A DNA stretch of 64,000 nucleotides, taken from contig JBAZKH010000006.1 in assembly GCA_041650935.1 (NCBI GenBank), positions 29,505 through 93,504 of the forward strand, read 5' to 3'. The notes under the pieces are model-generated. The model saw only the letters and a list, made by a program, of their open reading frames with translations, did not search any database and had not been told where the DNA came from. Position numbers and translations under genes: made by a program. Shown here piece by piece: positions 26,684 to 46,219 of this stretch (positions are counted from its first letter, which is position 1; every line of letters begins with the position of its first letter). The DNA comes from Candidatus Omnitrophota bacterium. GTDB taxonomy: Bacteria; Omnitrophota; Gorgyraeia; 2-01-FULL-45-10.

Positions 26684-26698
26684 ATGGAAGGATATTGC

Positions 26699-26824
26699 AT
26701 GACGTGCCAAAAGATTATGACGATGAAAGACGTCCGGGCCAAGACCTTGAAGAATAAAGATAAGATCTACGAGGGCAAGTGCGAAACTTGCGGCACCGCA
26801 ATTTATAAGAAGCGAGGTAACTAA
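26699..26824 (+). CDS. Small zinc-ribbon peptide (41 aa)
   Basis: MTCQ...GKCETCG. Its stop overlaps the start of the tail fibre gene (TAATG). Confidence 0.25.
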   Translation: MTCQKIMTMKDVRAKTLKNKDKIYEGKCETCGTAIYKKRGN

Positions 26825-27874: not shown

Positions 27875-28438
27875 ATGGGCAATTACGTTTCAGGAGCACC
27901 GAAGGATTCAGGCGGTAATCCGATCCCAGTTACCTGGACGGATGATCCGCTCGAGCAGGATACGACAGAGACCAAGAAACAGCACCTCGTCGAGATGAGG
28001 GCGGCCCTGCAGGCCTTGGACGGCCACTATCACGTCTTTAATGGGAACAACTCGCAAAGCGAGCTCCCGGACGTAGCCGTGTCGTGGCTTGTGCCGAGCG
28101 CGAATATCGTAATCGATGAGACGTTTGTCGCGGCACAGCACATAAACGAGATAATAGGTTTTATAAAGAACTTTGTCGGGCATTACCATTACGTTCCGGG
28201 ATACGGTGTAAACTCGACAACTTATTCGCCGAGCTTCAGTTTTGAGGACGATCCTGTCGGTGCCGATGTTACCTGGATCAAGGCAAGCGCCCACGAGGAG
28301 CTGAGGACGCATTTGGAAAGTCTGGCGGGTCATACGCATTCTGTATGCTGCGAGTGCGAATGCACCTGTACTTGTACCTGCGAGTGCACATGCGCGTGTA
28401 CCTGCACCTGCGAATGCCGGTGCGACGGGGAGATGTAA
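27875..28438 (+). CDS. Fibre-like protein with three helix+GHxH repeats and a C-terminal (Cys-X)13 tail, candidate substrate of the downstream radical SAM enzymes
   Basis: Three repeats ending GHYHVF, GHYHYV and GHTHSV. The C-terminus is CCECECTCTCTCECTCACTCTCECRCDGEM, i.e. 13 alternating Cys. An AAGGTGA RBS precedes the ATG. Its stop lies immediately before the rSAM start. Confidence 0.5.
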   Translation: MGNYVSGAPKDSGGNPIPVTWTDDPLEQDTTETKKQHLVEMRAALQALDGHYHVFNGNNSQSELPDVAVSWLVPSANIVIDETFVAAQHINEIIGFIKNFVGHYHYVPGYGVNSTTYSPSFSFEDDPVGADVTWIKASAHEELRTHLESLAGHTHSVCCECECTCTCTCECTCACTCTCECRCDGEM

Positions 28439-28440
28439 AG

Positions 28441-29550
28441 ATGAACTCTTGTTATTTAATGATGACGAACCGCTGCAATATGAACTGCTCTTACTGTTAC
28501 GAGAGGAAGTTTTTCAGGGGCAATCTGAAAGACATATCCGAAGAGACGGCAAAACAGGCGGTCGACTTCTTGGTCGCTAGTCATAAGCCGGGCAATAAGG
28601 CACGTCCTAATGAGGATATCAATATCTGTTATTTCGGGGGAGAACCTACATTAAACTGGGAGGTTCTTAAAAAGAACATCGTATATGTGCGCTCGATCGA
28701 AAAAGAAAAGAAGTTAAAGTTCGGCTTGTATCTTTTAACGAACGCAAAAGAGTTGCCTAAGGACGAGAAGGAGTTCTTTGGGGTCCTTCGAGATAACGGC
28801 GTAAAGATGCAGGTGTCCTTGGACGGCTGCAAGGAAGCCCATGACTCGACAAGAGGTCATTTCGACGTGATCGTAAAGAATACTCGAAAGATAATCGAAA
28901 ATCTTAATCGGCACATAATCGTGAGGATGACCGTTACGCCGGCTAATATCAGGCACGCTTATTCAAGCTTCAGAGCCATGGCGGAGCTCTCATGCACGGT
29001 CAACATGGTGCCGATCGTAGAGGAAGAGTGGACTAGTGATGCGATCGCCATAGCCAAGGAAGAATTCAAAAAGATTATGAATTACTATCAGAAGCTCTCG
29101 CGCATTAAGCCGGTAAAGTTTAACGTGGCCGAGAACTGTATTGACGGAGGATTCAGGCATTGTCAGACAGGAGCTTCCATGGTTTCGATTACCGTGGACG
29201 GCATCGTATATCCGTGTCACAGATTTCAGTTTCACCCCCAGCCGGAGAAAAACTGGAAGATGGGGGATGTGTTTAAAGGCGTGGAGCGATATCCGAATTT
29301 TAACGGCATATTCGCGAAGTGTTATTCGTGCGAGACCAATATCTGCCACCCATGTCCGTCCGCTTTTATCTTAAAGAACAGCGGCCGGGCCCCGGACTAT
29401 TACTGCAAATGGAATAAGGAGATCGAGGAGCTCGTAAGACCGCAGGCCTCGGAGGTAAGAAGCTATAACGAAAAAGAAGTCTACACGAAGAAACTCGATC
29501 TCATATTGGAAGGGTTGGGAGAAATACAGAAGTGCGTAAAAAAATCTTAA
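28441..29550 (+). CDS. Radical SAM enzyme with C-terminal SPASM domain (peptide-maturase/anSME-like)
   Basis: CNMNCSYCY (CxxxCxxC) near the N-terminus. SPASM-like C-terminal Cys array C(IDGGFRH)C...YPC...CYSCETNICHPCPSAF...YYC. The listed ORF start at 28345 is a spurious extension through the Cys-codon repeat. Confidence 0.8.
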   Translation: MNSCYLMMTNRCNMNCSYCYERKFFRGNLKDISEETAKQAVDFLVASHKPGNKARPNEDINICYFGGEPTLNWEVLKKNIVYVRSIEKEKKLKFGLYLLTNAKELPKDEKEFFGVLRDNGVKMQVSLDGCKEAHDSTRGHFDVIVKNTRKIIENLNRHIIVRMTVTPANIRHAYSSFRAMAELSCTVNMVPIVEEEWTSDAIAIAKEEFKKIMNYYQKLSRIKPVKFNVAENCIDGGFRHCQTGASMVSITVDGIVYPCHRFQFHPQPEKNWKMGDVFKGVERYPNFNGIFAKCYSCETNICHPCPSAFILKNSGRAPDYYCKWNKEIEELVRPQASEVRSYNEKEVYTKKLDLILEGLGEIQKCVKKS

Positions 29551-30821
29551 TAGTAAATCCTCCTGTCTTTACGCCGAAGCCGTGGAATAGCGTGGAAAAT
29601 GGCTCCATGGGGCCTTATGTCTTGGCTTCGTATTTGAGAGCCAACGGCGAGGAGGTTGCGCTGTTCGATTTTCTTACGGGAAGGAGGGGACTTGACGGAT
29701 GGGAAGATGTAAAGGTGGAAAGGGTCGCAAGGGCCGGTAATTACCTGGAGGAGCACCTTCAGAAGCGAATATATTATGCCGGCGCAAGTGAAAGGCACTA
29801 TATCGATTACCTTAAGGCCTACAAGCCGGATGAGGTATGGGTGTCGTGCCTTTTCACTTTCTACTGGGAAGGGGTCAAGTTTGTCTACGATGCCACAAGA
29901 GACTTTAACCCTTTAATCAAAATAAAACTGGGCGGTAACTATCCGACGCTTTGCCCGAGTCATGCGAGAGAGAACTTTCCGTGCGCGGATATAGTGGTTT
30001 CGGATCCGTGCGATATGAAGAGGTTTCAGAATATCGATATCGGGTTATACAGGGCTATCCCGCGGATGTTTCCGATACTTACCTCCGTGGGGTGTCCTTT
30101 CTCATGCGCATGGTGCGCGGTGCCTAAGCTTGAAGGCAGTACCATGAAGTTTAAAGATTCTTATGATGTGGTTTCGGATATCGAGGAAAAGTACCATTAC
30201 GGCATCAAGTCCTTCAGATTCATCGATTCTCACCTCCTGGCCGACTACGAGACGCATTTTAAGATAATCCTGGAAGAGCTTATAAAGAAGCCGTGGCGGG
30301 CCGAGCTTCATTCTTACGGAGGGCTTAATCCTCTTTATATAACGCAAGGCATACTCGAGCTCATGGCCGAGGCGGGATTTGTCAGGATCCAGCTTCCTAT
30401 CGAGACGATCAATGAAAATATACTGGAAAACAATAAGAGGGCCGTTTCGGCGATGAGGTGGGCGCTTGCAGTATGGAAACTTCGCAGGATTAAGAATTTT
30501 GAGATTACAAGCTATGTCTTATGCGGTATCCCGGGCCAGACTATTAAGGATATTTATAGGACGATCAATTTTGTAGAGGATCACGGCGTTACACCTGTGC
30601 CGTTATTTTTTACGCCTATACCCGGAACCCGATATGAGGACACAAGGCCTCTCGAGGACCTGCATCCGTACCTATTTCCTTACGCGTCAGGCGAGATGCC
30701 GGCTTCGGAACTTGAAAGAATACAGTCGAATTACTATACCGGGGGTATTCATGTTTCGGAAGCGATAACGGGGCCCAAGACCGTCTACGAGTCAGGGCCC
30801 GCGGTAAAGGTGGCAAGATGA
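29532..30821 (+). CDS. B12-binding domain radical SAM enzyme (class B, possible methyltransferase)
   Basis: N-terminal Rossmann-like B12-binding region (KILIVNPPVF...GPYVLASYLRANGEEVALFD). rSAM motif GCPFSCAWC (Cx3Cx2C). Overlaps the upstream rSAM gene. Confidence 0.75.
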   Translation: MRKKILIVNPPVFTPKPWNSVENGSMGPYVLASYLRANGEEVALFDFLTGRRGLDGWEDVKVERVARAGNYLEEHLQKRIYYAGASERHYIDYLKAYKPDEVWVSCLFTFYWEGVKFVYDATRDFNPLIKIKLGGNYPTLCPSHARENFPCADIVVSDPCDMKRFQNIDIGLYRAIPRMFPILTSVGCPFSCAWCAVPKLEGSTMKFKDSYDVVSDIEEKYHYGIKSFRFIDSHLLADYETHFKIILEELIKKPWRAELHSYGGLNPLYITQGILELMAEAGFVRIQLPIETINENILENNKRAVSAMRWALAVWKLRRIKNFEITSYVLCGIPGQTIKDIYRTINFVEDHGVTPVPLFFTPIPGTRYEDTRPLEDLHPYLFPYASGEMPASELERIQSNYYTGGIHVSEAITGPKTVYESGPAVKVAR

Positions 30822-31144
30822 TTCCTGTATGCCCGGAGTGCTCTAAGTTCGGAGATCCGACAAAGCTTTACATTGAGGGGACGAAATTAGTCTGTAAGGG
30901 TTGCGGTTTCGTGTATCCGAGCGAGTTCAAAGAAGAGGATGGGATGATTCTTTCAAAGGGCATAATAGAGCTTAATCCGAAGCCGGACTCGATCATGTAT
31001 GTGAAGGTTATAGATATGAAGGATCCGTCACGGCAGAGTTGCGAGGTTATAGAAACCTTGCCTCTCGTTCCTATTTTAAACGGCAGGGCCGTTAAATCCT
31101 ACACTGTGCGGGCCCGCTATGAGCTTGAGGTTTATTATGAATGA
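30818..31144 (+). CDS. Small zinc-ribbon protein, paralog family member 1
   Basis: CPEC...CKGC ribbon. C-terminal GRAVKSYTVRARYELEVYYE module shared with ORFs 31667 and 31854. Confidence 0.4.
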   Translation: MIPVCPECSKFGDPTKLYIEGTKLVCKGCGFVYPSEFKEEDGMILSKGIIELNPKPDSIMYVKVIDMKDPSRQSCEVIETLPLVPILNGRAVKSYTVRARYELEVYYE

Positions 31145-31679
31145 GAAGTCATCCTTTTGGGATGTCGTAAAAGCTCTAGGGCTAACGGAAGAAGATATCG
31201 TCATGGAATATAAGGCGTGGTTTATGTGGCACAACAGGACAAAGCCGGATCTGGTGCTGACGCTACTCATGGACTGGCGGTTCAGGGCCCTTTCAAAGGC
31301 GCGGTTCTATCTCGAGGTCATCTTAAAGACAAAGGATAAGAGGGCCGAGTTATTCGATATGCGTGAGTTCGAGAAGGCGCTTAACGAAGAGGTGACCGTA
31401 TACAGGGGTAACGCCGGGGTATTCAATCCCGCATACGAGGAGAAGTTTCATTTTGTGGCGATGACGGCCTCGTTCGATACGGCTCTAATGTTTGCCAAGT
31501 ATCCGGATGCCAAGGCAACGCATTTGCCGGCGCCTCCCGAACATAAGCAGTACTGGGTTATAGGGGTGACATTGCCCTTAAAAAACATCATGGCATACAG
31601 GGACCTGTCCGATCTCGAGGTCTGGATCGGAAAAGAATATTACAAAAACGCGAAGGTGCTTGTTCAATGCGGCGTATAG
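31119..31679 (+). CDS. Hypothetical protein
   Basis: 186 aa, no recognisable motif. Embedded in the operon. Confidence 0.3.
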   Translation: MSLRFIMNEKSSFWDVVKALGLTEEDIVMEYKAWFMWHNRTKPDLVLTLLMDWRFRALSKARFYLEVILKTKDKRAELFDMREFEKALNEEVTVYRGNAGVFNPAYEEKFHFVAMTASFDTALMFAKYPDAKATHLPAPPEHKQYWVIGVTLPLKNIMAYRDLSDLEVWIGKEYYKNAKVLVQCGV

Positions 31680-31852
31680 AGTTTATCGCTAGCCCGGAAA
31701 CAAGGCTTGAAATTCAGGAGACGGATAAGGATAAGAATATCCTGATCTGCCCGGCTCAAAAGTTAGAGAGGCATCCTTATATCGGAGGAAGGGCCGTAAA
31801 ACAGTACAAGGTAAAAATAGAATACGAAGCGATACCGCTTATCGGAGGTTAA
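31667..31852 (+). CDS. Small protein, paralog family member 2 (C-terminal module only)
   Basis: GRAVKQYKVKIEYEAIPL shared module. Confidence 0.35.
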   Translation: MRRIEFIASPETRLEIQETDKDKNILICPAQKLERHPYIGGRAVKQYKVKIEYEAIPLIGG

Positions 31853-31853
31853 T

Positions 31854-32183
31854 ATGATGGAATGCCCCAGGTGCGAAGAAAAGATTAAGCTCGTAAAAAC
31901 AGGCAGCGAGCTCGTATGCCCTAACTGCAAGTACGTTGATCCGAAACCCGCGCCCGCGGGCGACAGTTTCGTTGTGGCGGAGAAAACCGTATCTTTCGAG
32001 TGCGGGCCCGAAGACGTAATCAATCTCTTTAAAGACGTTGTGGTGCCGGGCGAAAAAGAGAATAAAGGGTTTTCGCGCGAGTTCGTATTAAAGCAGGTCC
32101 TTGAAAAAGAGCCGTTCGTGGGATCGGCAAAGGTGAAGAAATATTTGGTCGAGGCGCAGTATAAAGTTACGGCAATAGTATAA
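31854..32183 (+). CDS. Small zinc-ribbon protein, paralog family member 3
   Basis: CPRC...CPNC ribbon. C-terminal GSAKVKKYLVEAQYKVTAIV module. Confidence 0.4.
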   Translation: MMECPRCEEKIKLVKTGSELVCPNCKYVDPKPAPAGDSFVVAEKTVSFECGPEDVINLFKDVVVPGEKENKGFSREFVLKQVLEKEPFVGSAKVKKYLVEAQYKVTAIV

Positions 32184-32204
32184 AAAACGAAAGGAGAAAA
32201 GGTT

Positions 32205-32498
32205 ATGGGTAAAGAAGTTATCGGTTTTGAGGAGGTCACGGTAGATGACACGGTTAAGGTTCTCACGGCTTCCATCTATGCCCCGGCGCAGGGCCGGCAG
32301 GCCTCCAGGGCCATGATTACGGTTGAAGGCGGGAATATACGCTACAGGGTAGACGGTGGAAACCCCACATCCGCGTCCGGGCATCTTGCCACGGAAGGCG
32401 ATATTTTCGCGCTTGAGTCTATCTACGAAATAAAGAATTTCAAGGCGACTAGGGTCAGTACCGCATCGGGAAAGCTAGTAGTCAGTTACGAAGAGTGA
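32205..32498 (+). CDS. Hypothetical protein
   Basis: 97 aa ORF with a good RBS (AAAGGAGAAAAGG). Confidence 0.3.
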   Translation: MGKEVIGFEEVTVDDTVKVLTASIYAPAQGRQASRAMITVEGGNIRYRVDGGNPTSASGHLATEGDIFALESIYEIKNFKATRVSTASGKLVVSYEE

Positions 32499-32516: not shown

Positions 32517-33023
32517 ATGCTGTTTTTCCGAATAGTAAAATTTATAAGAGGCGTCCTGAAGACGGGGCAGACATACTCTAATCATCAGTATGACGACGGC
32601 TATTATCAGAAAGGCCTCCCGAAATACAACGACAGGTTTGTAGATAATCAGGACGGTACCATAACCGATAAGATCACCGGGCTTATGTGGGTAAAAGAAG
32701 TCTCGGCGTTGGGAGCGCCTTTTAATGCCGTCATGAACTGGGAGAGCGCCCTCAATAACTGCGAGAGCCTTGTTTACGCGGGGCATTCCGACTGGAGGGC
32801 TCCGAATATCAATGAAATACAAACTCTCATCGACTTCGGGAGGGCTAACCCTTCGATAAACACGGTCTTCTTCCCGAATACTCCGTGGGAGGGATTCTGG
32901 TCTAGTTCAGCTCTCTCGACTAACGGCTGGTTGGTCTGGTGCATATCTTTTGCGGACGGTTACAGATTTAATACGGGTCAGGACAGCAATTATTACGTCC
33001 GCCCCGTAAGGAATGCGTTTTAA
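32517..33023 (+). CDS. DUF1566 (Lcl C-terminal domain-like) protein, tail fibre-associated
   Basis: DKITGLMWVKE...WESALNNCESL...HSDWRAPNINEIQTL is the characteristic DUF1566 signature. Confidence 0.55.
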   Translation: MLFFRIVKFIRGVLKTGQTYSNHQYDDGYYQKGLPKYNDRFVDNQDGTITDKITGLMWVKEVSALGAPFNAVMNWESALNNCESLVYAGHSDWRAPNINEIQTLIDFGRANPSINTVFFPNTPWEGFWSSSALSTNGWLVWCISFADGYRFNTGQDSNYYVRPVRNAF

Positions 33024-36510: not shown

Positions 36511-37494
36511 TTGATGGAAAATCACGTTAAAGAGTTAGGCATAAAAGAACTGGCGGATTTTAAGCTGTATTTTAAGCTGCAAGGCTACGCCGATGGCAGC
36601 ATCCATCAATACGTCACCTATATGAAAGAATTTCTGCAGTATATAAAGGAAAAATCGATAGAGAAGTTGTCCGAGGTTACGCCGGAGGTAATATCCAAAT
36701 ATCAGCTGTATCTATCCACTGTTAAGCGCAAGCGCCCGGACAAAAAGAACCTGTCGATGATAACGCAGATCCATAAGATTGTGGCGATAATGCACTTCTT
36801 CAGATTTTTGGTAAGAGAGAAAAACTATCTATACGATCCCACGAGCCACATCAAGCTAAGAACCCCTCCGAGAAAGCGCGTCAGGGAGGTATTGTCCAAG
36901 AAGGAGATGTTAAGGCTCTTAAACGCCCCCAACCCCGAAACTCCTTTGGGGTTACGGGATAAGGCGTTACTGGAGCTGTATTATTCCTGCGGCATAAGGA
37001 ATACCGAATCGAGGATGCTTACGGTAAAAGACGCTGACCTCGAGAATAGACTCGTAAGGATCCGGTTTCCGAAAGGCGGAGGAGATCAGGGAGGAGATCA
37101 GACAGTACCTATCGGAAGGATCGCAGCATTGTATATAGACGAATATATAAGAAATGCCAGGCCGAAGCTCCTTAAAAACGATTTGGAAGAGACGCTGTTT
37201 CTGTCCAAGAACGGCAAGCCCTTAAGTGACGGCATGCCGGCGCATATAGTCCAGAAATACGCCGCAATCGCCAAGATTAATCGGAAAACAGACGCTCATA
37301 CTTTAAGGCATACGTGCGGAACTCATTTATATGATAACGGCGCTGATATAAGGTGCATTCAGGAACTACTCCGTCACAAGTCATTGGATACAACCCAGAT
37401 TTACATCGACGTCAAGGCCACGAAGTTGCGCAAGGTCTTGGAGAAGACCCATCCCAGGGAAAGGGGAATAGTATATGCTCCCGCTATTGAATGA
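36511..37494 (+). CDS. Tyrosine recombinase (integrase family), trio member 1
   Basis: HTLRHTCGTHLYDNGADIRCIQELLRHKSLDTTQIYIDV carries the R-HxxR-H-Y catalytic signature. Confidence 0.85.
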   Translation: MMENHVKELGIKELADFKLYFKLQGYADGSIHQYVTYMKEFLQYIKEKSIEKLSEVTPEVISKYQLYLSTVKRKRPDKKNLSMITQIHKIVAIMHFFRFLVREKNYLYDPTSHIKLRTPPRKRVREVLSKKEMLRLLNAPNPETPLGLRDKALLELYYSCGIRNTESRMLTVKDADLENRLVRIRFPKGGGDQGGDQTVPIGRIAALYIDEYIRNARPKLLKNDLEETLFLSKNGKPLSDGMPAHIVQKYAAIAKINRKTDAHTLRHTCGTHLYDNGADIRCIQELLRHKSLDTTQIYIDVKATKLRKVLEKTHPRERGIVYAPAIE

Positions 37495-38425
37495 GTTTAA
37501 GGACGGGCTCGAAAAGGAAGGCCTTCGTCAGTGCACGATCGAGAATATGGTAAGGCACGTTAATTTTTTCGCGAAATACTACAAGTCTTTCGATATGAGA
37601 AAGGTCTCGAGTAAAGATATCAAAAAATTCAAAATATACATCATGCTGGAGCATATTACCGAGAAAGGCAAAAATAAAGGCAAGAAGATATGCGTCGAAT
37701 ATGTCATATCCATACTATGTTCTTTGATGAAATACTTCAAATTTTTGGCGCAGAGAAGACATATATTTTTCGATCCGACGCTTGACTTGGAATTCCCGAA
37801 GAAGAATCCGCATTTTCCGGATTATATACCGAGCGAAAAAGATGTGCAGGAGCTGTTGCAAAAGCCGGATACGAATACTTACTGGGGGATAAGGGACAGG
37901 CTCTTATTTGAGCTTGCCTATACCTGTCCGCTACGAAACCAAGAACTTGGACGACTATGCATTCAGGATATCGATATGAAGGATAGATACATTTATCCGA
38001 AAAGAGAAAAAGGCGGGTATGAGTGCGGCATACCGATAACGGATTCTACGCATCAAATTTTGGAGAAATATCTTTCGATATCGCGCCCCCGGCTTTTGAA
38101 AGGAGCAAAAACCCCCACGATGACCGATAGATTGTTTATAACTATATACGGTGGTCCCTTCAAGAAGACTACCATAGACGATATATTCGCAAAATACCGG
38201 GGAGATAAGAGGATACATCCTCACTTGATGAGGCATGCCTGCGCCGTCCATATGCTGAAAGGCGGGGCAAGGATAAGGGATATTCAGGTTCTGTTGGGCC
38301 ACAGGCGACTGACCTCGACCAATCGCTATACTCGCCTGACAGCCAACGATATTAAAGACATACAAGATAAATATCATCCAAGGGAGAGGAGTGCTAGACG
38401 TGCTGCCGCTGTTGGACGAATTTAA
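37475..38425 (+). CDS. Tyrosine recombinase, trio member 2
   Basis: HPHLMRHACAVHMLKGGARIRDIQVLLGHRRLTSTNRYTRL. Overlaps member 1 by 20 nt. Confidence 0.85.
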   Translation: MLPLLNEFKDGLEKEGLRQCTIENMVRHVNFFAKYYKSFDMRKVSSKDIKKFKIYIMLEHITEKGKNKGKKICVEYVISILCSLMKYFKFLAQRRHIFFDPTLDLEFPKKNPHFPDYIPSEKDVQELLQKPDTNTYWGIRDRLLFELAYTCPLRNQELGRLCIQDIDMKDRYIYPKREKGGYECGIPITDSTHQILEKYLSISRPRLLKGAKTPTMTDRLFITIYGGPFKKTTIDDIFAKYRGDKRIHPHLMRHACAVHMLKGGARIRDIQVLLGHRRLTSTNRYTRLTANDIKDIQDKYHPRERSARRAAAVGRI

Positions 38426-40247
38426 GCAGAAGTTATTAAAGGAACACAAGCTTATAACTATGACCAACACGATAAGTATATGCTTTATGCTGGAAGACTG
38501 GTATGGGTCAGACCGCATGGAGAAGATAACATGCGAAGACCTTGATCGATTCAAAAAATATCTTATGACAGAATACATTACGCGTACTGGCGGGCATTAT
38601 CATCTTTCAACCATCGTAGCGAGGTTCGAAGGGCTAAAGAAATATTTTGCGTTTTTGATGGAGAAGAAATATATATCGAAGGACCCCATGTGCGGTCTTG
38701 AGTTCCCGAAGACAAAACCGCAACTGCCACCGTGGCTGCCTACAGAGAAAGAAGTCCGTGAGCTTATAAATAAAGTCGACGCAAGCTCGCCTCAGGGCTC
38801 GTCCGATAAGGCGGTAATCGCACTAATGTCGATCATGCCGTTAAAGAATAAGGAAGTGGGGCCACTTACGGTAGACCAGGTGGACATAGAGAATAGATGC
38901 GTATATCCTATAAAAGGATCGAAAGAGCTCGCGATACCGATGCCCGATCCTATCTTTGAAATACTGAATAAGTATATTACGAAGGATCGTTATCATATAG
39001 TCAAGTGGCTTAAAGCCCCGACAGACTTACTTTTCGTAAGCAGGCTCGGGACGGCGTTCTTTGAGTCAACGCTGAATAATATATTCTCTAGATATAACAG
39101 ATATGCTCCGCGCGAGAAGCGCATATATCCGTATCTTATGCGGCCGGCTACGGCCAACCATATGCGAAAAAGGGGAATGAAACTCGAGGACATCCATAAG
39201 ATCTTGGGCGTAAAATACAGAACCGTCGGTACCTATACAACTCTTGCCAGAAATGAAATAAGGGCGGAAGAGGAAAGATACGTGGCAAAGATACCTTTGT
39301 TCAAGGAGTTTAAAGAGAAACTCGTAAAAGACGAGTTATCCCCGAACATGATTCACAACGCTTTGAAGGCGATCATATTCTTTGCCAAGTATTTAAAGAG
39401 CGATGATATGAAAAAGATCACCCCTGCCGATATCGGAAGGTGCAAAAATTATGTTTTAAACGAGTATATTACCATCGAGAATAGAAAATTAACCGAACAA
39501 GAGGTGGCTTTGAGGTTGCGTGCTTTAAAGACATATTTCAATTTTCTTGCGGAGAGCAGGTATCTTTCGTCAGATCCGGCTGTAGATATAAAGATTCCGG
39601 ACGTCCCTCCTCGCATAAATTGGTATCGGCCGACAGATGAAGCTATAGAAGAGTTCGCATCTAGACCTGATCCGTATACATACGTAGGCATGCGAGATGC
39701 TGTGATAATACGATTGTGGCACCTTACCGCGTTAAAACCCAATGAGCATATGGATCTAAAAGTGCAAGATATAGATTTGAATAAGAAAGTGCTTTATGTG
39801 CCAGGGCCAAGACGTCGCACCTTGAAATTGGATGATAAAACATATAAGGCCGTCGAGCGATATCTTACCAAATCCAGGCCTGTATTCTTGAAGAAAGCCA
39901 AGGAGCCTACCGATAAGTTATTTATGAATGAATGGGGAGGTCCTCTTGCTCTATGTAGTATGTATGATATATTTTGGAAATATAAGGGCGACAGGAAGAT
40001 TAAACCATGCATTTCAAGGCATGCGAGGGCTCTCAAAATGTTTCGTGACGGCTCCAGCGCCGAAGAAGTTAAAAAGGCCTTAGGTTTTAGATCTATTAGA
40101 TCGTGCCAAGCTTATAAAGCGATGGTTGCGAAGGATGTAACTGGTTTCTATAAGAAGGATCGCTTTGAGGAGAAGGTCAGGCTTATTAGACGAGAAAAAC
40201 CCGCTTACCATTCAGATAATTCCAATCTTGTAACACTTCCCAAGTAG
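38391..40247 (+). CDS. Tandem double tyrosine-recombinase-fold protein, trio member 3
   Basis: Two successive recombinase modules: YPYLMRPATANHM...ILGV...GTY and ISRHARALKMF...ALGF...CQAY. Both lack the second conserved His. 618 aa. Overlaps member 2 by 35 nt. Confidence 0.65.
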   Translation: MLDVLPLLDEFKQKLLKEHKLITMTNTISICFMLEDWYGSDRMEKITCEDLDRFKKYLMTEYITRTGGHYHLSTIVARFEGLKKYFAFLMEKKYISKDPMCGLEFPKTKPQLPPWLPTEKEVRELINKVDASSPQGSSDKAVIALMSIMPLKNKEVGPLTVDQVDIENRCVYPIKGSKELAIPMPDPIFEILNKYITKDRYHIVKWLKAPTDLLFVSRLGTAFFESTLNNIFSRYNRYAPREKRIYPYLMRPATANHMRKRGMKLEDIHKILGVKYRTVGTYTTLARNEIRAEEERYVAKIPLFKEFKEKLVKDELSPNMIHNALKAIIFFAKYLKSDDMKKITPADIGRCKNYVLNEYITIENRKLTEQEVALRLRALKTYFNFLAESRYLSSDPAVDIKIPDVPPRINWYRPTDEAIEEFASRPDPYTYVGMRDAVIIRLWHLTALKPNEHMDLKVQDIDLNKKVLYVPGPRRRTLKLDDKTYKAVERYLTKSRPVFLKKAKEPTDKLFMNEWGGPLALCSMYDIFWKYKGDRKIKPCISRHARALKMFRDGSSAEEVKKALGFRSIRSCQAYKAMVAKDVTGFYKKDRFEEKVRLIRREKPAYHSDNSNLVTLPK

Positions 40248-43643: not shown

Positions 43644-44879
43644 ATGAAGAAACGAGTTGTTATAACAGGTGTGGGTGCTATTGCTTCCAATAGTATTGGT
43701 ATAGATGAATTTTGGGATGCTCTTAAAGCTGGTAAGAGTGGTATTAAAAAAATAACCAGTTTTGATACGAAACAATTCCCGACAAAAGTTGCCGGGGAGA
43801 TTACCGACTTTAACCCGGAAAAATTCCTTGATCTTAAACAGGCAAGAAGGATGGATAGGTTTGTTCAATTCGCAGTTTCGGTAGCGAAGATGGCGGTTAA
43901 AGATTCCGGCTTAAACATAAAAGAGGAAGATTCTAAGCGTATTGGAGTTATTACAGGCACTGCTACAGCCGGTCAGGGTTGGGTATTCACGCAATACGAA
44001 ATATTCCGGTCAAAGGGGTATAAAAGACTCAATCCTTTTACGGCAGCTTCGACCTTCCCTAACGCATCATCTTCTCAAATATCTCTTGAGTTCAAAATTA
44101 ACGGTCCAAGCGAGACATTCTCAACCGGCTGTGCCTCTGGTGGTATTGCTATGGGTCATGCACTTGAGCTAATCCGGAACAATAAGATTGATATTGCGAT
44201 TGTTGTAGGAAGTGAAGCATTGCTTTATGCGCCGATATTTGGAACATATTGTGTTGCTCGAATTATGTCAACCAAAGACGGGAGCATAATAAAAACACCT
44301 GCGCCTTTTGATAAAAATAGAGACGGCATGGTGTTAGCTGAAGGTGCCGGTTGCATAATTTTAGAAAGTCTTGATCATGCGAAAAAACGCAAAGCCCAAA
44401 TGTATGCAGAGTTTATCGGATGGGGTGAAACATGCGATGCATATCATATAATATCAACCGAACCCCACGGAAAAGAAGCAGAGCGCGCTATCCTGATGGC
44501 TATAGAAGATAGCGGTATAAAGCTAGACGATATTAATTATGTAAAGATGCATGGCATAGGTGATTCCGTTAACGATAAGATTGAAACGCAGGTTATGAAA
44601 CGAGTTTTCGGGAAAAAGGCTTATGATATTCCTATGACATCGATCAAGTCTATGATAGGGCATACCCAAGGTGCCTGCAGCGTTCTAGAGACGGTTTCAA
44701 CTGTTCTTGCGATGAAAAATAGTATGATTCCACCCACGATTAATTATGAGACGCCGGATCCCGAATGTGACTTAGACTATGTACCAAATAATGCCAGGTC
44801 TTATAAGATAAGTTGTGCTTTGATAAACACCTTTGGATTTGGCGGAAAAAACGTATCGCTAATCATTAAAAAAATATGA
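43644..44879 (+). CDS. Beta-ketoacyl-ACP synthase (KAS II / FabF-like)
   Basis: Active-site Cys in FSTGCASGGIAMGHA. His motifs HGIGD and GHTQGA. Terminal GFGGKN. Confidence 0.85.
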   Translation: MKKRVVITGVGAIASNSIGIDEFWDALKAGKSGIKKITSFDTKQFPTKVAGEITDFNPEKFLDLKQARRMDRFVQFAVSVAKMAVKDSGLNIKEEDSKRIGVITGTATAGQGWVFTQYEIFRSKGYKRLNPFTAASTFPNASSSQISLEFKINGPSETFSTGCASGGIAMGHALELIRNNKIDIAIVVGSEALLYAPIFGTYCVARIMSTKDGSIIKTPAPFDKNRDGMVLAEGAGCIILESLDHAKKRKAQMYAEFIGWGETCDAYHIISTEPHGKEAERAILMAIEDSGIKLDDINYVKMHGIGDSVNDKIETQVMKRVFGKKAYDIPMTSIKSMIGHTQGACSVLETVSTVLAMKNSMIPPTINYETPDPECDLDYVPNNARSYKISCALINTFGFGGKNVSLIIKKI

Positions 44880-46219
44880 AAATACTACTTATAAGGCCAT
44901 CAAGCTATGATGGCGTAGGCAAATTAAGGCGTTTCAAAAAAGCGTATATGCCTTTTTTGACGCTTCCACTTATCAAGGCATTAACGCCTAAAAATGTTGA
45001 AATAAGGCTTATAGACGAATATCTTGACGAAGTGGATTTTAAGGCACAGCCTGACTGTGTAGGAATCACAGGTTTAACTTCGAACATAAAAAGAAGCTAT
45101 GAGATAGCGAATAAGTTTAGAAGTAAAGGTGTAAGGGTAGTCTTGGGTGGCCACCACGTTACTGCATTACCTGATGAAGCGTTGCAACATGCTGATGCAG
45201 TAGTTATTGGCGAGGCTGAAAATGTTTGGGAAGATTTGATAAATGATTTATATAGCAAAAAACTAAAAAGAATCTACTCATGCGATACACTTTTTGATTT
45301 GAAAAATTCAATAATTCCTGACTATTCATCAATTGATCTAAAAAGGTATTTAAGCGCGCCATTTGCCAGAGGTCCTCTTTTTCCAATTCAGGCCACAAGA
45401 GGATGTCCCTTTGATTGCGAGTTTTGTTCTGTCGCATCTTTTTTTAAAGGCACATTTCGTACTAAACCTGTTAGTTTAATTTTAAAAGAAATAAAGCAAC
45501 TTCGAGCCACATATTACTTTTTTGTAGATGATAACATAATTGGTAATCCTTCCTACGCAAAGGAGTTGTTTGCTGCTCTGGTACCTTTAAAGATCCACTG
45601 GATAGGGCAATTTAGTACTACCATTCTCAAATTCCCAGAATTAGTCGAATTGGCGGGTAAGAGTGGGTGTACATCTGCATATATAGGGATAGAAAATTTA
45701 TCAGATAAAAATTTAAAAAGCGTAAAAAAAATTAATAAGATAAATGAATATTCTGATCTTTTAAATATGCTAAACAGAAATGGCATAAAGCCTTTTGTCA
45801 GTATGATACTCGGGATGGAAGATGATGATAAGGATGTATTTATACGTAATCTTGATTTTTTGATAAAAAATAAGGCAGGCAAAGCGTATTTCTATATTTT
45901 AACACCTTTCCCAGGGACCCCTCTTTTTGAAAGAATGAATAAGGAAAATAAAATAATAACTAAAGACTGGAATTGTTACGACGGATCTCGGGCTGTATTT
46001 AAACATAGTAGACTATCTTGTAAAGAGTTGGAAGACGGCTTGTGGTATTCGTACAGAAGATTTTTTTCGTTGTCCCAAATATTTAAAAGAAATTTTACAT
46101 ACTTATTTAAGAATCCATTGATGTATTTGGTGTTACTGTTTTATGATATGTATTTCCATAGTGCCATTTTAAAAAATACCCACCCCTTGAGCGAAGGGGG
46201 TAAGCATAGGATAAATTAA
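44876..46219 (+). CDS. B12-binding domain radical SAM enzyme
   Basis: N-terminal B12-binding fold (KILLIRPSSYDG...VGITGLTS...VVLGGHHVT). rSAM motif GCPFDCEFC. Overlaps the KAS gene. Confidence 0.8.
   Translation: MKILLIRPSSYDGVGKLRRFKKAYMPFLTLPLIKALTPKNVEIRLIDEYLDEVDFKAQPDCVGITGLTSNIKRSYEIANKFRSKGVRVVLGGHHVTALPDEALQHADAVVIGEAENVWEDLINDLYSKKLKRIYSCDTLFDLKNSIIPDYSSIDLKRYLSAPFARGPLFPIQATRGCPFDCEFCSVASFFKGTFRTKPVSLILKEIKQLRATYYFFVDDNIIGNPSYAKELFAALVPLKIHWIGQFSTTILKFPELVELAGKSGCTSAYIGIENLSDKNLKSVKKINKINEYSDLLNMLNRNGIKPFVSMILGMEDDDKDVFIRNLDFLIKNKAGKAYFYILTPFPGTPLFERMNKENKIITKDWNCYDGSRAVFKHSRLSCKELEDGLWYSYRRFFSLSQIFKRNFTYLFKNPLMYLVLLFYDMYFHSAILKNTHPLSEGGKHRIN

Follow-up and report, generated by a model that had tools for sequence, protein, structure and literature searches.

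We examined a 64,000-nucleotide stretch of a Candidatus Omnitrophota genome (GenBank assembly GCA_041650935.1, contig JBAZKH010000006.1, forward-strand positions 29,505 to 93,504; hereafter the window, numbered from its first letter), focusing on three small proteins, here called A, B and C, that are encoded alongside two radical S-adenosylmethionine (rSAM) enzymes. These genes belong to a prophage-like element that spans approximately 6–37.5 kb of the window, has a GC content of about 0.49 (0.37–0.44 in the flanks), and encodes a lambda-type large terminase and portal together with gene transfer agent (GTA)-like distal tail genes (DUF2460, BR0599 and a 1031-aa Phage-tail_3/NlpC-P60 protein). 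The 1031-aa tail protein is followed by a 46-aa CxxC...CxxC zinc ribbon protein (26684–26824; weak DUF5679 match), a 346-aa protein, a 187-aa fiber-like protein recognized from its sequence and bearing a conserved tail (27875–28438), a 369-aa SPASM rSAM maturase (28441–29550; assigned with Pfam and NCBIfam and starting at M33 of the listed open reading frame, or ORF), a 429-aa B12-binding rSAM enzyme (29532–30821; Pfam Radical_SAM 6e-15, B12-binding 8e-6), A (30818–31144), p180, a 180-aa protein to which no family is assigned (31137–31679), B (31667–31852), C (31854–32183), p97, a conserved 96–97-aa beta protein (32205–32498), and a 168-aa Lcl_C (DUF1566) protein (32517–33023; Pfam PF07603, 1.1e-31). 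From the fiber gene onward all lie on the forward strand. The cassette genes are closely packed, with stops and starts that overlap or abut and with Shine-Dalgarno-like sequences, and the Lcl_C protein marks the end of the conserved fiber cassette, a position that it keeps in related loci.

A (108 aa) consists of an N-terminal Cys4 zinc ribbon (C5, C8, C26, C29), an F-x-E-x-D-G linker motif, and a four-strand beta module that ends in a conserved C-terminal YYE. C (109 aa) likewise joins a Cys4 ribbon (C4, C7, C22, C25) to the beta module, which here contains an 8-aa insertion, and B (61 aa) is the module alone, with no ribbon and a single conserved Cys-Pro; the YYE end is absent from both B and C. 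The start of A is preceded by aaaggtgg, that of B by aaggtg and that of C by ggagg. The start codon of A overlaps the stop codon of the B12-rSAM gene (ATGA), and A is predicted to be translationally coupled to that gene. An antisense ORF of 170 aa (31763–32275, reverse strand) spans B and C; given the purifying selection on the A/B/C genes and their conserved forward-strand orthologs, we regard it as an artifact.

A first-pass annotation of the window had described A, B and C as three paralogs sharing a C-terminal module of about 25 aa, and the three ORFs are present with the motifs that it quoted. Their similarity, which that annotation allowed might fade in a proper alignment, is significant. 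Pairwise BLASTP aligns A with C at 2e-7 over 103 aa, A with B at 1e-5 over 53 aa, and B with C at 3e-6 over 29 aa. A profile of A-type proteins built without window sequences and run against the 847 six-frame ORFs of the window matches C at 4e-15 and B at 1.8e-7, with no other match at E ≤ 10. Profile–profile comparison with hhalign pairs A with C at 99.2% probability (2.6e-19, 101 columns), and B pairs with the C-terminal half of A at 97% (1.1e-10, 59 columns). On these alignments A, B and C are true homologs, and A and C are homologous from end to end, Cys4 ribbon included. The earlier description therefore stands in its essentials but needs correction: the shared module is about 60 aa long, that is, the whole of B, comprising four strands and the loop P-[YF]-x-G-x-K-x-V-K-x-Y; and the N-termini, listed as differing because the middle protein has the module alone, are in A and C part of the same homologous protein. 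All three proteins are under purifying selection, with dN/dS values (0.09–0.11 for A, 0.18–0.21 for B and 0.07–0.21 for C) that indicate constraint comparable to that on the neighboring enzymes (0.05–0.14). Two further relationships were considered and rejected. A weak Trm112p match of B raised the idea that the module is a degenerate duplicate of the ribbon, and hhalign of the N-terminal against the C-terminal halves found no similarity; p97, which ends in ...TYE, was considered as a hidden fourth paralog, and it scored 0.6% probability against the A/B/C profile.

The family extends well beyond the window. In a word-indexed search, the three-sequence alignment retrieved 46 clusters, which split cleanly into orthologs of A (108 aa), of C (109 aa) and of B (55–69 aa); the named ortholog clusters come from Candidatus Omnitrophota metagenome-assembled genomes. 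Orthologs of A are 75–92% identical to it, B has at least 28 ortholog clusters (55–71 aa), and C has the orthologs P0001, P0006, P0011, P0013 and P0018 and the distant relatives P0048 and P0060. An exhaustive profile search over 1.84 billion cluster representatives gave 28 at E ≤ 1e-3, among them 16 distant A-types, two distant C-types and four distant B-types. The distant A-types measure 104–116 aa and are 22–33% identical to A (57% for P0047); all 16 carry the full CxxC...CxxC ribbon, 14 the F-x-E-x-[DNQS]-G linker motif, and 12 an aromatic-aromatic-acidic C-terminus (YYE, YYD or FYE). Across all subtypes the most conserved part of the module is the loop before the last strand, P-[YF]-x-G-x-K-x-[VI]-K-x-Y. 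In distant loci each of the three subtypes retains its characteristic signature, which indicates distinct and non-redundant roles. The relatives sit in Omnitrophota-type (pro)phage contigs, and the triplication is lineage-specific, with zero, one, two or three members in related loci.

Directly after the B12-rSAM gene of one such locus (L044, reverse strand, forward coordinates ~333–545) lies a 60-aa ORF, MPGTEKRAGVCDFDLESNDVVVVTVVKPNGDAYIVYKEKMVEEDGKINYNLTADYKVKTK, with a module-like ...INYNLTADYKVKT. It looks like a very diverged module-only member and scores only E 1.7 with the family hidden Markov model (HMM), so that further members may escape the profiles. Comparison of the region with GenBank phages by blastn gave no match, a related-locus search in IMG/VR with A or P0050 found none, and literature searches returned no description of this cassette or family.

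Structure prediction by AlphaFold2 (AF2) benefited from the distant relatives: the predicted local distance difference test (pLDDT) score of A was 69 with a shallow alignment and 91.8 with a diverse 52-sequence alignment (predicted template modeling score, pTM, 0.62). The model places the ribbon at residues 1–35 and strands at 43–52, 58–65, 73–81 and 97–105, with no helices, and the four strands form a flat sheet without a compact core. A fold search of the model against PDB identified no structural relative beyond the ribbon, and Foldseek against BFVD returned nothing below E 1. Pfam, PHROG, NCBIfam and PADLOC scans of A, B and C yielded only sub-threshold zinc-ribbon matches, with no family that covers the module. 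Across 52 family members, the sub-threshold Pfam ribbons were Trm112p in 17, TFIIB in 10 and the YjdM ribbon (PF08274) in 5. The first-pass annotation had allowed that the module might prove to be a ubiquitous known domain such as KOW; neither KOW nor any other such small beta domain matched at E ≤ 0.1 in the 52 members, among the top 25 of 60 matched families, or at E ≤ 1 in A, B and C of the window. Cysteines are confined to the ribbon save at most one other, whose position is not conserved across subtypes, and conservation is uniform over the proteins, with no division into leader and core and no hypervariable core.

Two known families share features with A and C. YjdM/PhnA proteins (TIGR00686; Zn_Ribbon_YjdM plus PhnA C-terminal domain), to which A and C have weak NCBIfam matches, are likewise about 110 aa long, with an N-terminal Cys4 ribbon and an all-beta C-terminal part. 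In hhalign, the family ribbon aligns with a YjdM profile of nine sequences (E. coli YjdM and eight plasmid-borne homologs) at 90% probability (E 1.5e-6, 33 columns), and a profile of A only does so at 91% (32–33 columns). Homology of the module was rejected: a match to the single E. coli YjdM sequence (95%, 62 columns) shrank to the ribbon alone with the nine-sequence profile, and the module by itself scored at most 1.1% against that profile, which leaves no PhnA/YjdM C-terminal beta domain in the family. Trm112/UPF0434 proteins, also small zinc-ribbon proteins, share the pattern C-x-x-C-G-x-x-Y-P...D-G, and the Trm112p matches (PF03966) fell below the gathering score (best E 5.9e-4; 17.9 bits for A of the window against a cut-off of 22). 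Trm112 is a non-catalytic partner of methyltransferases that engages them through beta-strand pairing, the mode that we propose below for A, B and C. However, the beta module has no counterpart in Trm112, whose partners are class I methyltransferases rather than rSAM enzymes. A rubredoxin-type carrier was also rejected, as the Cys pairs are 14–17 residues apart (in rubredoxin, which has an aromatic core, the CxxCG...CPxCG knuckles are about 29 apart), the PDB profile match reached only E 0.95, and B lacks the ribbon. The family is best described as a new domain, in which a common type of zinc ribbon is combined with a beta module without detectable relatives.

We then compared gene order across loci gathered by exact-protein look-up and by a DNA pattern for the fiber tail CCECECTCT, and scored with local HMMs. 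The tail pattern identified 46 loci (12 from IMG/VR, 2 from GTDB genomes and 32 from JGI metagenomes, with some contigs present twice), one of the GTDB genomes being the complete chromosome of Ca. Velamenicoccus archaeovorus LiM (L029, NZ_CP019384.1). Wherever the 3' flank is readable, the tail-bearing fiber gene is followed by an rSAM gene, except in L032 and L053, where an A-type gene follows. Three arrangements can be distinguished. In type 1, the order is fiber, SPASM (369–370 aa in related loci), B12, A, p180, B, C, p97, Lcl_C; it is seen in the window, L001, L004, L005, L006, L012, L035 and L037 and in part in L030, with variants that lack C (the L014 lineage) or in which fiber, SPASM and B12 are followed by the diverged 60-aa ORF that resembles the module and escaped the HMM (L044). 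In type 2, seen in 21 loci including Ca. V. archaeovorus (e.g., L022, 7606–11684), a longer SPASM enzyme (~427 aa, with a helical C-terminal extension) and a 450-aa B12 enzyme stand between the fiber and p97–Lcl_C, with no family member. In type 3, a SPASM gene with a type-2-like C-terminus precedes the fiber, which is followed by A and a ParB-like 100-aa protein (L011/L056 and L053; in L032 the fiber, A and ParB-like genes are present and the SPASM gene lies off the contig); in L038 a B12 enzyme stands where A and the ParB-like gene would otherwise be.

Several observations on these loci stand apart from the family itself. The type-3 ORF after A (L011, 1478–1780; reverse strand in L032) encodes about 100 aa, is ParB/Srx-like with the motif ...GKKY[RI]I[VT].G..R, and is followed by an fn3-like fiber protein. 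Type-2 loci have, at the position of the window's 46-aa ribbon protein, a different protein of about 85 aa with a CxxC...C..H..C motif (e.g., L022, 6744–7055); a relaxed hmmsearch for hidden relatives of A, B and C in these loci recovered this recurrent ORF 5' of the fiber, which does not contain the module. The SPASM gene of L006 (981–2246) and the p180 gene of L008 (708–1324) are each split into two ORFs and are either frameshift pseudogenes or assembly errors.

The operon linkage to two rSAM genes reported in the first-pass annotation is borne out in the window and holds across the much more diverged family. A lies directly after the B12 gene in nine of nine type-1 loci with readable flanks, and every member with a readable upstream neighbor directly follows either an rSAM gene or a Cys-tailed fiber gene that itself follows a SPASM gene. 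The direct order of rSAM and A genes, often with stop/start overlap, occurs in the window, L001, L004, L005, L012 and L014; the fiber-mediated order occurs in L011/L056 and L053, and in L032, where the upstream gene is off the contig. Among distant A-types on short contigs, P0050, P0055 and P0065 directly follow a B12-type enzyme and P0061 a Pfam Radical_SAM protein, and P0053 follows a contig-edge protein with a partial CxxxCxxC and Cys-rich C-terminal motifs that we read by eye as rSAM. The family is absent from all 21 type-2 loci. Between the window and these loci, the fiber is 71–75% identical, p97 48–51% and Lcl_C 48%, whereas the SPASM enzyme is only 31–32% and the B12 enzyme 33% identical, and A, p180, B and C are missing. 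L012, a type-1 locus, has a more diverged fiber (63%) and yet retains the type-1 enzymes (SPASM 62%, B12 56%) as well as A (51%), p180 (49%), B (38%) and C (40%). Since the block accompanies type-1 enzymes and is absent beside nearly identical type-2 fibers, A-p180-B-C moves with the enzyme pair and not with the fiber. This speaks for a functional link with the enzymes, whether as partner or substrate, and against a purely structural role in the fiber; the 21 cassettes without A, B and C in turn make them accessory rather than core components. The identities also suggest that the rSAM pair itself has been exchanged as a module.

The likely chemistry of the cassette can be judged from its enzymes and its fiber. 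The SPASM enzyme matches rSAM_PapB (2.7e-50; 171 bits against a cut-off of 340), the SCIFF maturase (1.8e-36), QhpD (3.9e-25) and also CcpM; all these NCBIfam matches are below the curated cut-offs, and by this measure the enzyme is closest to PapB/SCIFF-like, thioether-forming maturases. The best NCBIfam matches of the B12-rSAM enzyme, again below cut-offs, are to class-B methyltransferase-type families. The SPASM CxxxCxxC motif begins at residue 12, leaving no N-terminal RiPP recognition element (RRE) domain, where RiPP denotes a peptide that is made on the ribosome and modified post-translationally; the RRE is missing from both maturases of the cassette. The NCBIfam alignment of the SPASM enzyme starts at model position 4. 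The 187-aa fiber-like protein contains three H..ELR.AL..L.GHxH repeats, for which the HxH metal sites known from T4 fiber tips offer a possible comparison, and ends in the tail CCECECTCTCTCECTCACTCTCECRCDGEM (nt 28346–28435), a CxCxC array in which the residues between cysteines are mostly Glu or Thr and also Ala or Arg. PapB uses Asp/Glu carboxylate-bearing acceptors C-terminal to Cys, or a C-terminal carboxylate, and PapB-type enzymes are reported to dock their substrates through an RRE (PMC12373016). The fiber is probably the substrate of the rSAM pair; it has the appearance of a virion protein with a ranthipeptide-like rSAM-modified tip.

We tentatively favor, at somewhat short of an even chance, the view that A, B and C serve these RRE-less, fiber-maturing rSAM enzymes as non-catalytic partners or docking proteins. 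According to the family matches, the PapB/SCIFF-type SPASM enzyme would put thioether cross-links into the CxCxC tail of the fiber and the B12-dependent enzyme would methylate it. A, B and C would most likely bind the enzymes, the extended Cys-rich tail, or both by strand pairing, and would so keep the substrate docked, stabilized or in place for one particular enzyme-pair subtype. The likely picture is one of covalent stapling and methylation of a tail-fiber tip in phages of anaerobes; binding by A, B and C, their partner or partners, and the chemistry on the fiber are what we infer. This reading is favored by the adjacency to rSAM genes, the translational coupling, the co-inheritance with one enzyme subtype, the missing RRE, the enzyme-like constraint and the specialization into three subtypes. 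RRE/PqqD-type chaperones offer a parallel, being likewise small and encoded beside SPASM rSAM maturases, and because the maturases here lack a fused RRE, a separate partner is plausible.

A number of points weigh against a partner role. Binding by A, B and C is so far a proposal. RRE domains are winged helix-turn-helix folds, whereas the AF2 model of A shows a ribbon and four strands with no helices, and no sequence or structural match to RRE/PqqD proteins was found; beyond the ribbon, the model matches nothing in PDB or BFVD. The recognition or chaperone role proposed in the first-pass annotation fits the evidence best, although the AF2 model and the fold search indicate that any such protein would not be an RRE. 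The 21 type-2 cassettes, whose nearly identical fiber is encoded without A, B and C, suggest that these proteins are dispensable for the chemistry as such. Type-3 loci pair A with a type-2-like SPASM C-terminus and have no adjacent B12 gene, so the correlation with enzyme subtype is imperfect and the tie of A is exclusive neither to type-1 enzymes nor to B12. Finally, co-inheritance with the enzymes is equally expected of substrates.

That last point leads to the alternative that survives best, though we consider it rather unlikely: the rSAM enzymes could act on A, B and C as extra protein-level substrates, in the manner of QhpC or of paralogous RiPP precursors, with the modification placed in the conserved loop and last strand (G-x-K-x-V-K-x-Y...Y-E) or at the YYE C-terminus. 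Like ranthipeptide/SCIFF and QhpC-type substrates, they are encoded beside a PapB/SCIFF/QhpD-like maturase with which they are co-inherited; several paralogs with a common conserved C-terminal motif are usual in precursor families; and the SPASM enzyme is also QhpD-like, QhpD being an enzyme that cross-links a folded protein. The aromatic-aromatic-acidic terminus recurs in most distant A-types (12 of 16), and PapB-type acceptors are Asp/Glu or a C-terminal carboxylate (PMC12373016). However, B and C have no YYE end, and A, B and C differ from such substrates in having no Cys-rich core: they carry no more than one Cys beyond the ribbon, and it is not conserved across subtypes, and the obvious Cys-rich substrate of the cassette is already provided by the CxCxC-tailed 187-aa fiber. 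The whole 60-aa module is conserved, with a confidently predicted fold (pLDDT ~92), and shows neither a leader/core split nor a hypervariable core. Identity as a ranthipeptide or sactipeptide RiPP precursor was rejected, considering the placement of Cys in the ribbon, the uniform conservation, the confident fold, and dN/dS values of 0.07–0.21 over the full length. The suggestion made at first pass that A, B and C are additional substrates is correspondingly weakened.

Also unlikely is the alternative that A, B and C serve the fiber as structural or assembly factors (adaptors, tip decorations, or Tfa- or gp38-like chaperones) and adjoin the rSAM genes merely because both belong to a fiber module. 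Their block does lie in the tail-fiber region, after the GTA-like distal tail genes and before p97 and Lcl_C, and in type 3 A directly follows the fiber gene, the classical place of a fiber assembly gene. A flat, coreless four-strand sheet suggests packing on a partner, and three paralogs could match a trimeric fiber. Against this, the presence of the proteins tracks the enzyme subtype, with 71–75% identical fibers lacking them in 21 loci; distant A-types are coupled to the stop codons of B12-rSAM genes; and no similarity to known Tfa or fiber chaperone families was found in PHROGs or Pfam. The assembly-adaptor role raised at first pass therefore loses ground, as the block follows the enzymes and not the fiber.

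It is improbable that A, B and C are unrelated accessory genes, or morons, that occupy a permissive site in the fiber operon and act, for example, as zinc-ribbon regulators or as anti-defense proteins together with p180, a possible ADP-ribosyltransferase. In favor of this, A-p180-B-C does form an optional insert between B12 and p97, the corresponding position in type-3 loci carries A with a ParB-like gene or else a B12 enzyme, and p180 has R, TAS and DxEVWI motifs in ADP-ribosyltransferase order with a weak Plx2A match. Against it, the rSAM linkage persists to 22–33% identity and through at least three gene orders, which random insertion would not predict; PADLOC gave no match; and the ADP-ribosyltransferase assignment is statistically unsupported. 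Homologs of p180 occur only within this cassette, where it travels with the A/B/C block; p97, by comparison, is present in cassettes with and without A, B and C. The invariant YRG, (A)MTA[SN]F and DxE[VI]WI motifs of p180 follow one another, by eye, as in R-S-E ADP-ribosyltransferases and at roughly the same spacing. That candidate was rejected: Pfam, NCBIfam and PADLOC returned no match, the only PDB profile match was a weak one to the Plx2A ADP-ribosyltransferase toxin (5urp, E 0.15), and hhalign against T4 ModA/ModB gave 0.2%.

Elsewhere in the window, tyrosine recombinases at 36.5–40.2 kb mark the right end of the prophage-like region. The three adjacent genes (36511–40247; 327, 316 and 618 aa, all Phage_integrase) are reminiscent of recombinase-in-trio elements. 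In the lower-GC flank, a 447-aa ORF (44876–46219) is weakly similar to the phage B12-rSAM enzyme (E 5.5e-7) and is preceded by a 411-aa ORF just upstream (region 43644–46219).

The partner reading of A, B and C can be taken further, in a form that we regard as speculative and improbable. The three paralogs would constitute a hetero-oligomeric jig that holds the three Cys-rich tails of a trimeric fiber for rSAM stapling and methylation, and the resulting inter- or intra-chain thioether staples would give phages of strict anaerobes a replacement for disulfides that needs no oxygen. In its extreme version, the conserved acidic C-terminus of A would itself become covalently linked to a fiber cysteine.

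Which substrates are open to radical SAM maturases is set by small partner proteins, and to our knowledge nearly all of those known so far are winged helices of the RRE/PqqD type. If A, B and C are partners, they would represent a second, structurally unrelated type, with three specialized subtypes and, as their target, not a peptide but a folded virion protein, and they would provide a handle for reconstituting the apparent rSAM-mediated stapling of a phage tail-fiber tip in Omnitrophota. According to a 2026 paper, phage associations had not been reported for this phylum (PMC13452462). If either version of the jig holds, the three proteins would be substrate-presenting partners of a new class, serving protein-level radical SAM chemistry on a virion. 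Whatever their function, A, B and C define a new domain family with a sharply defined genomic context.

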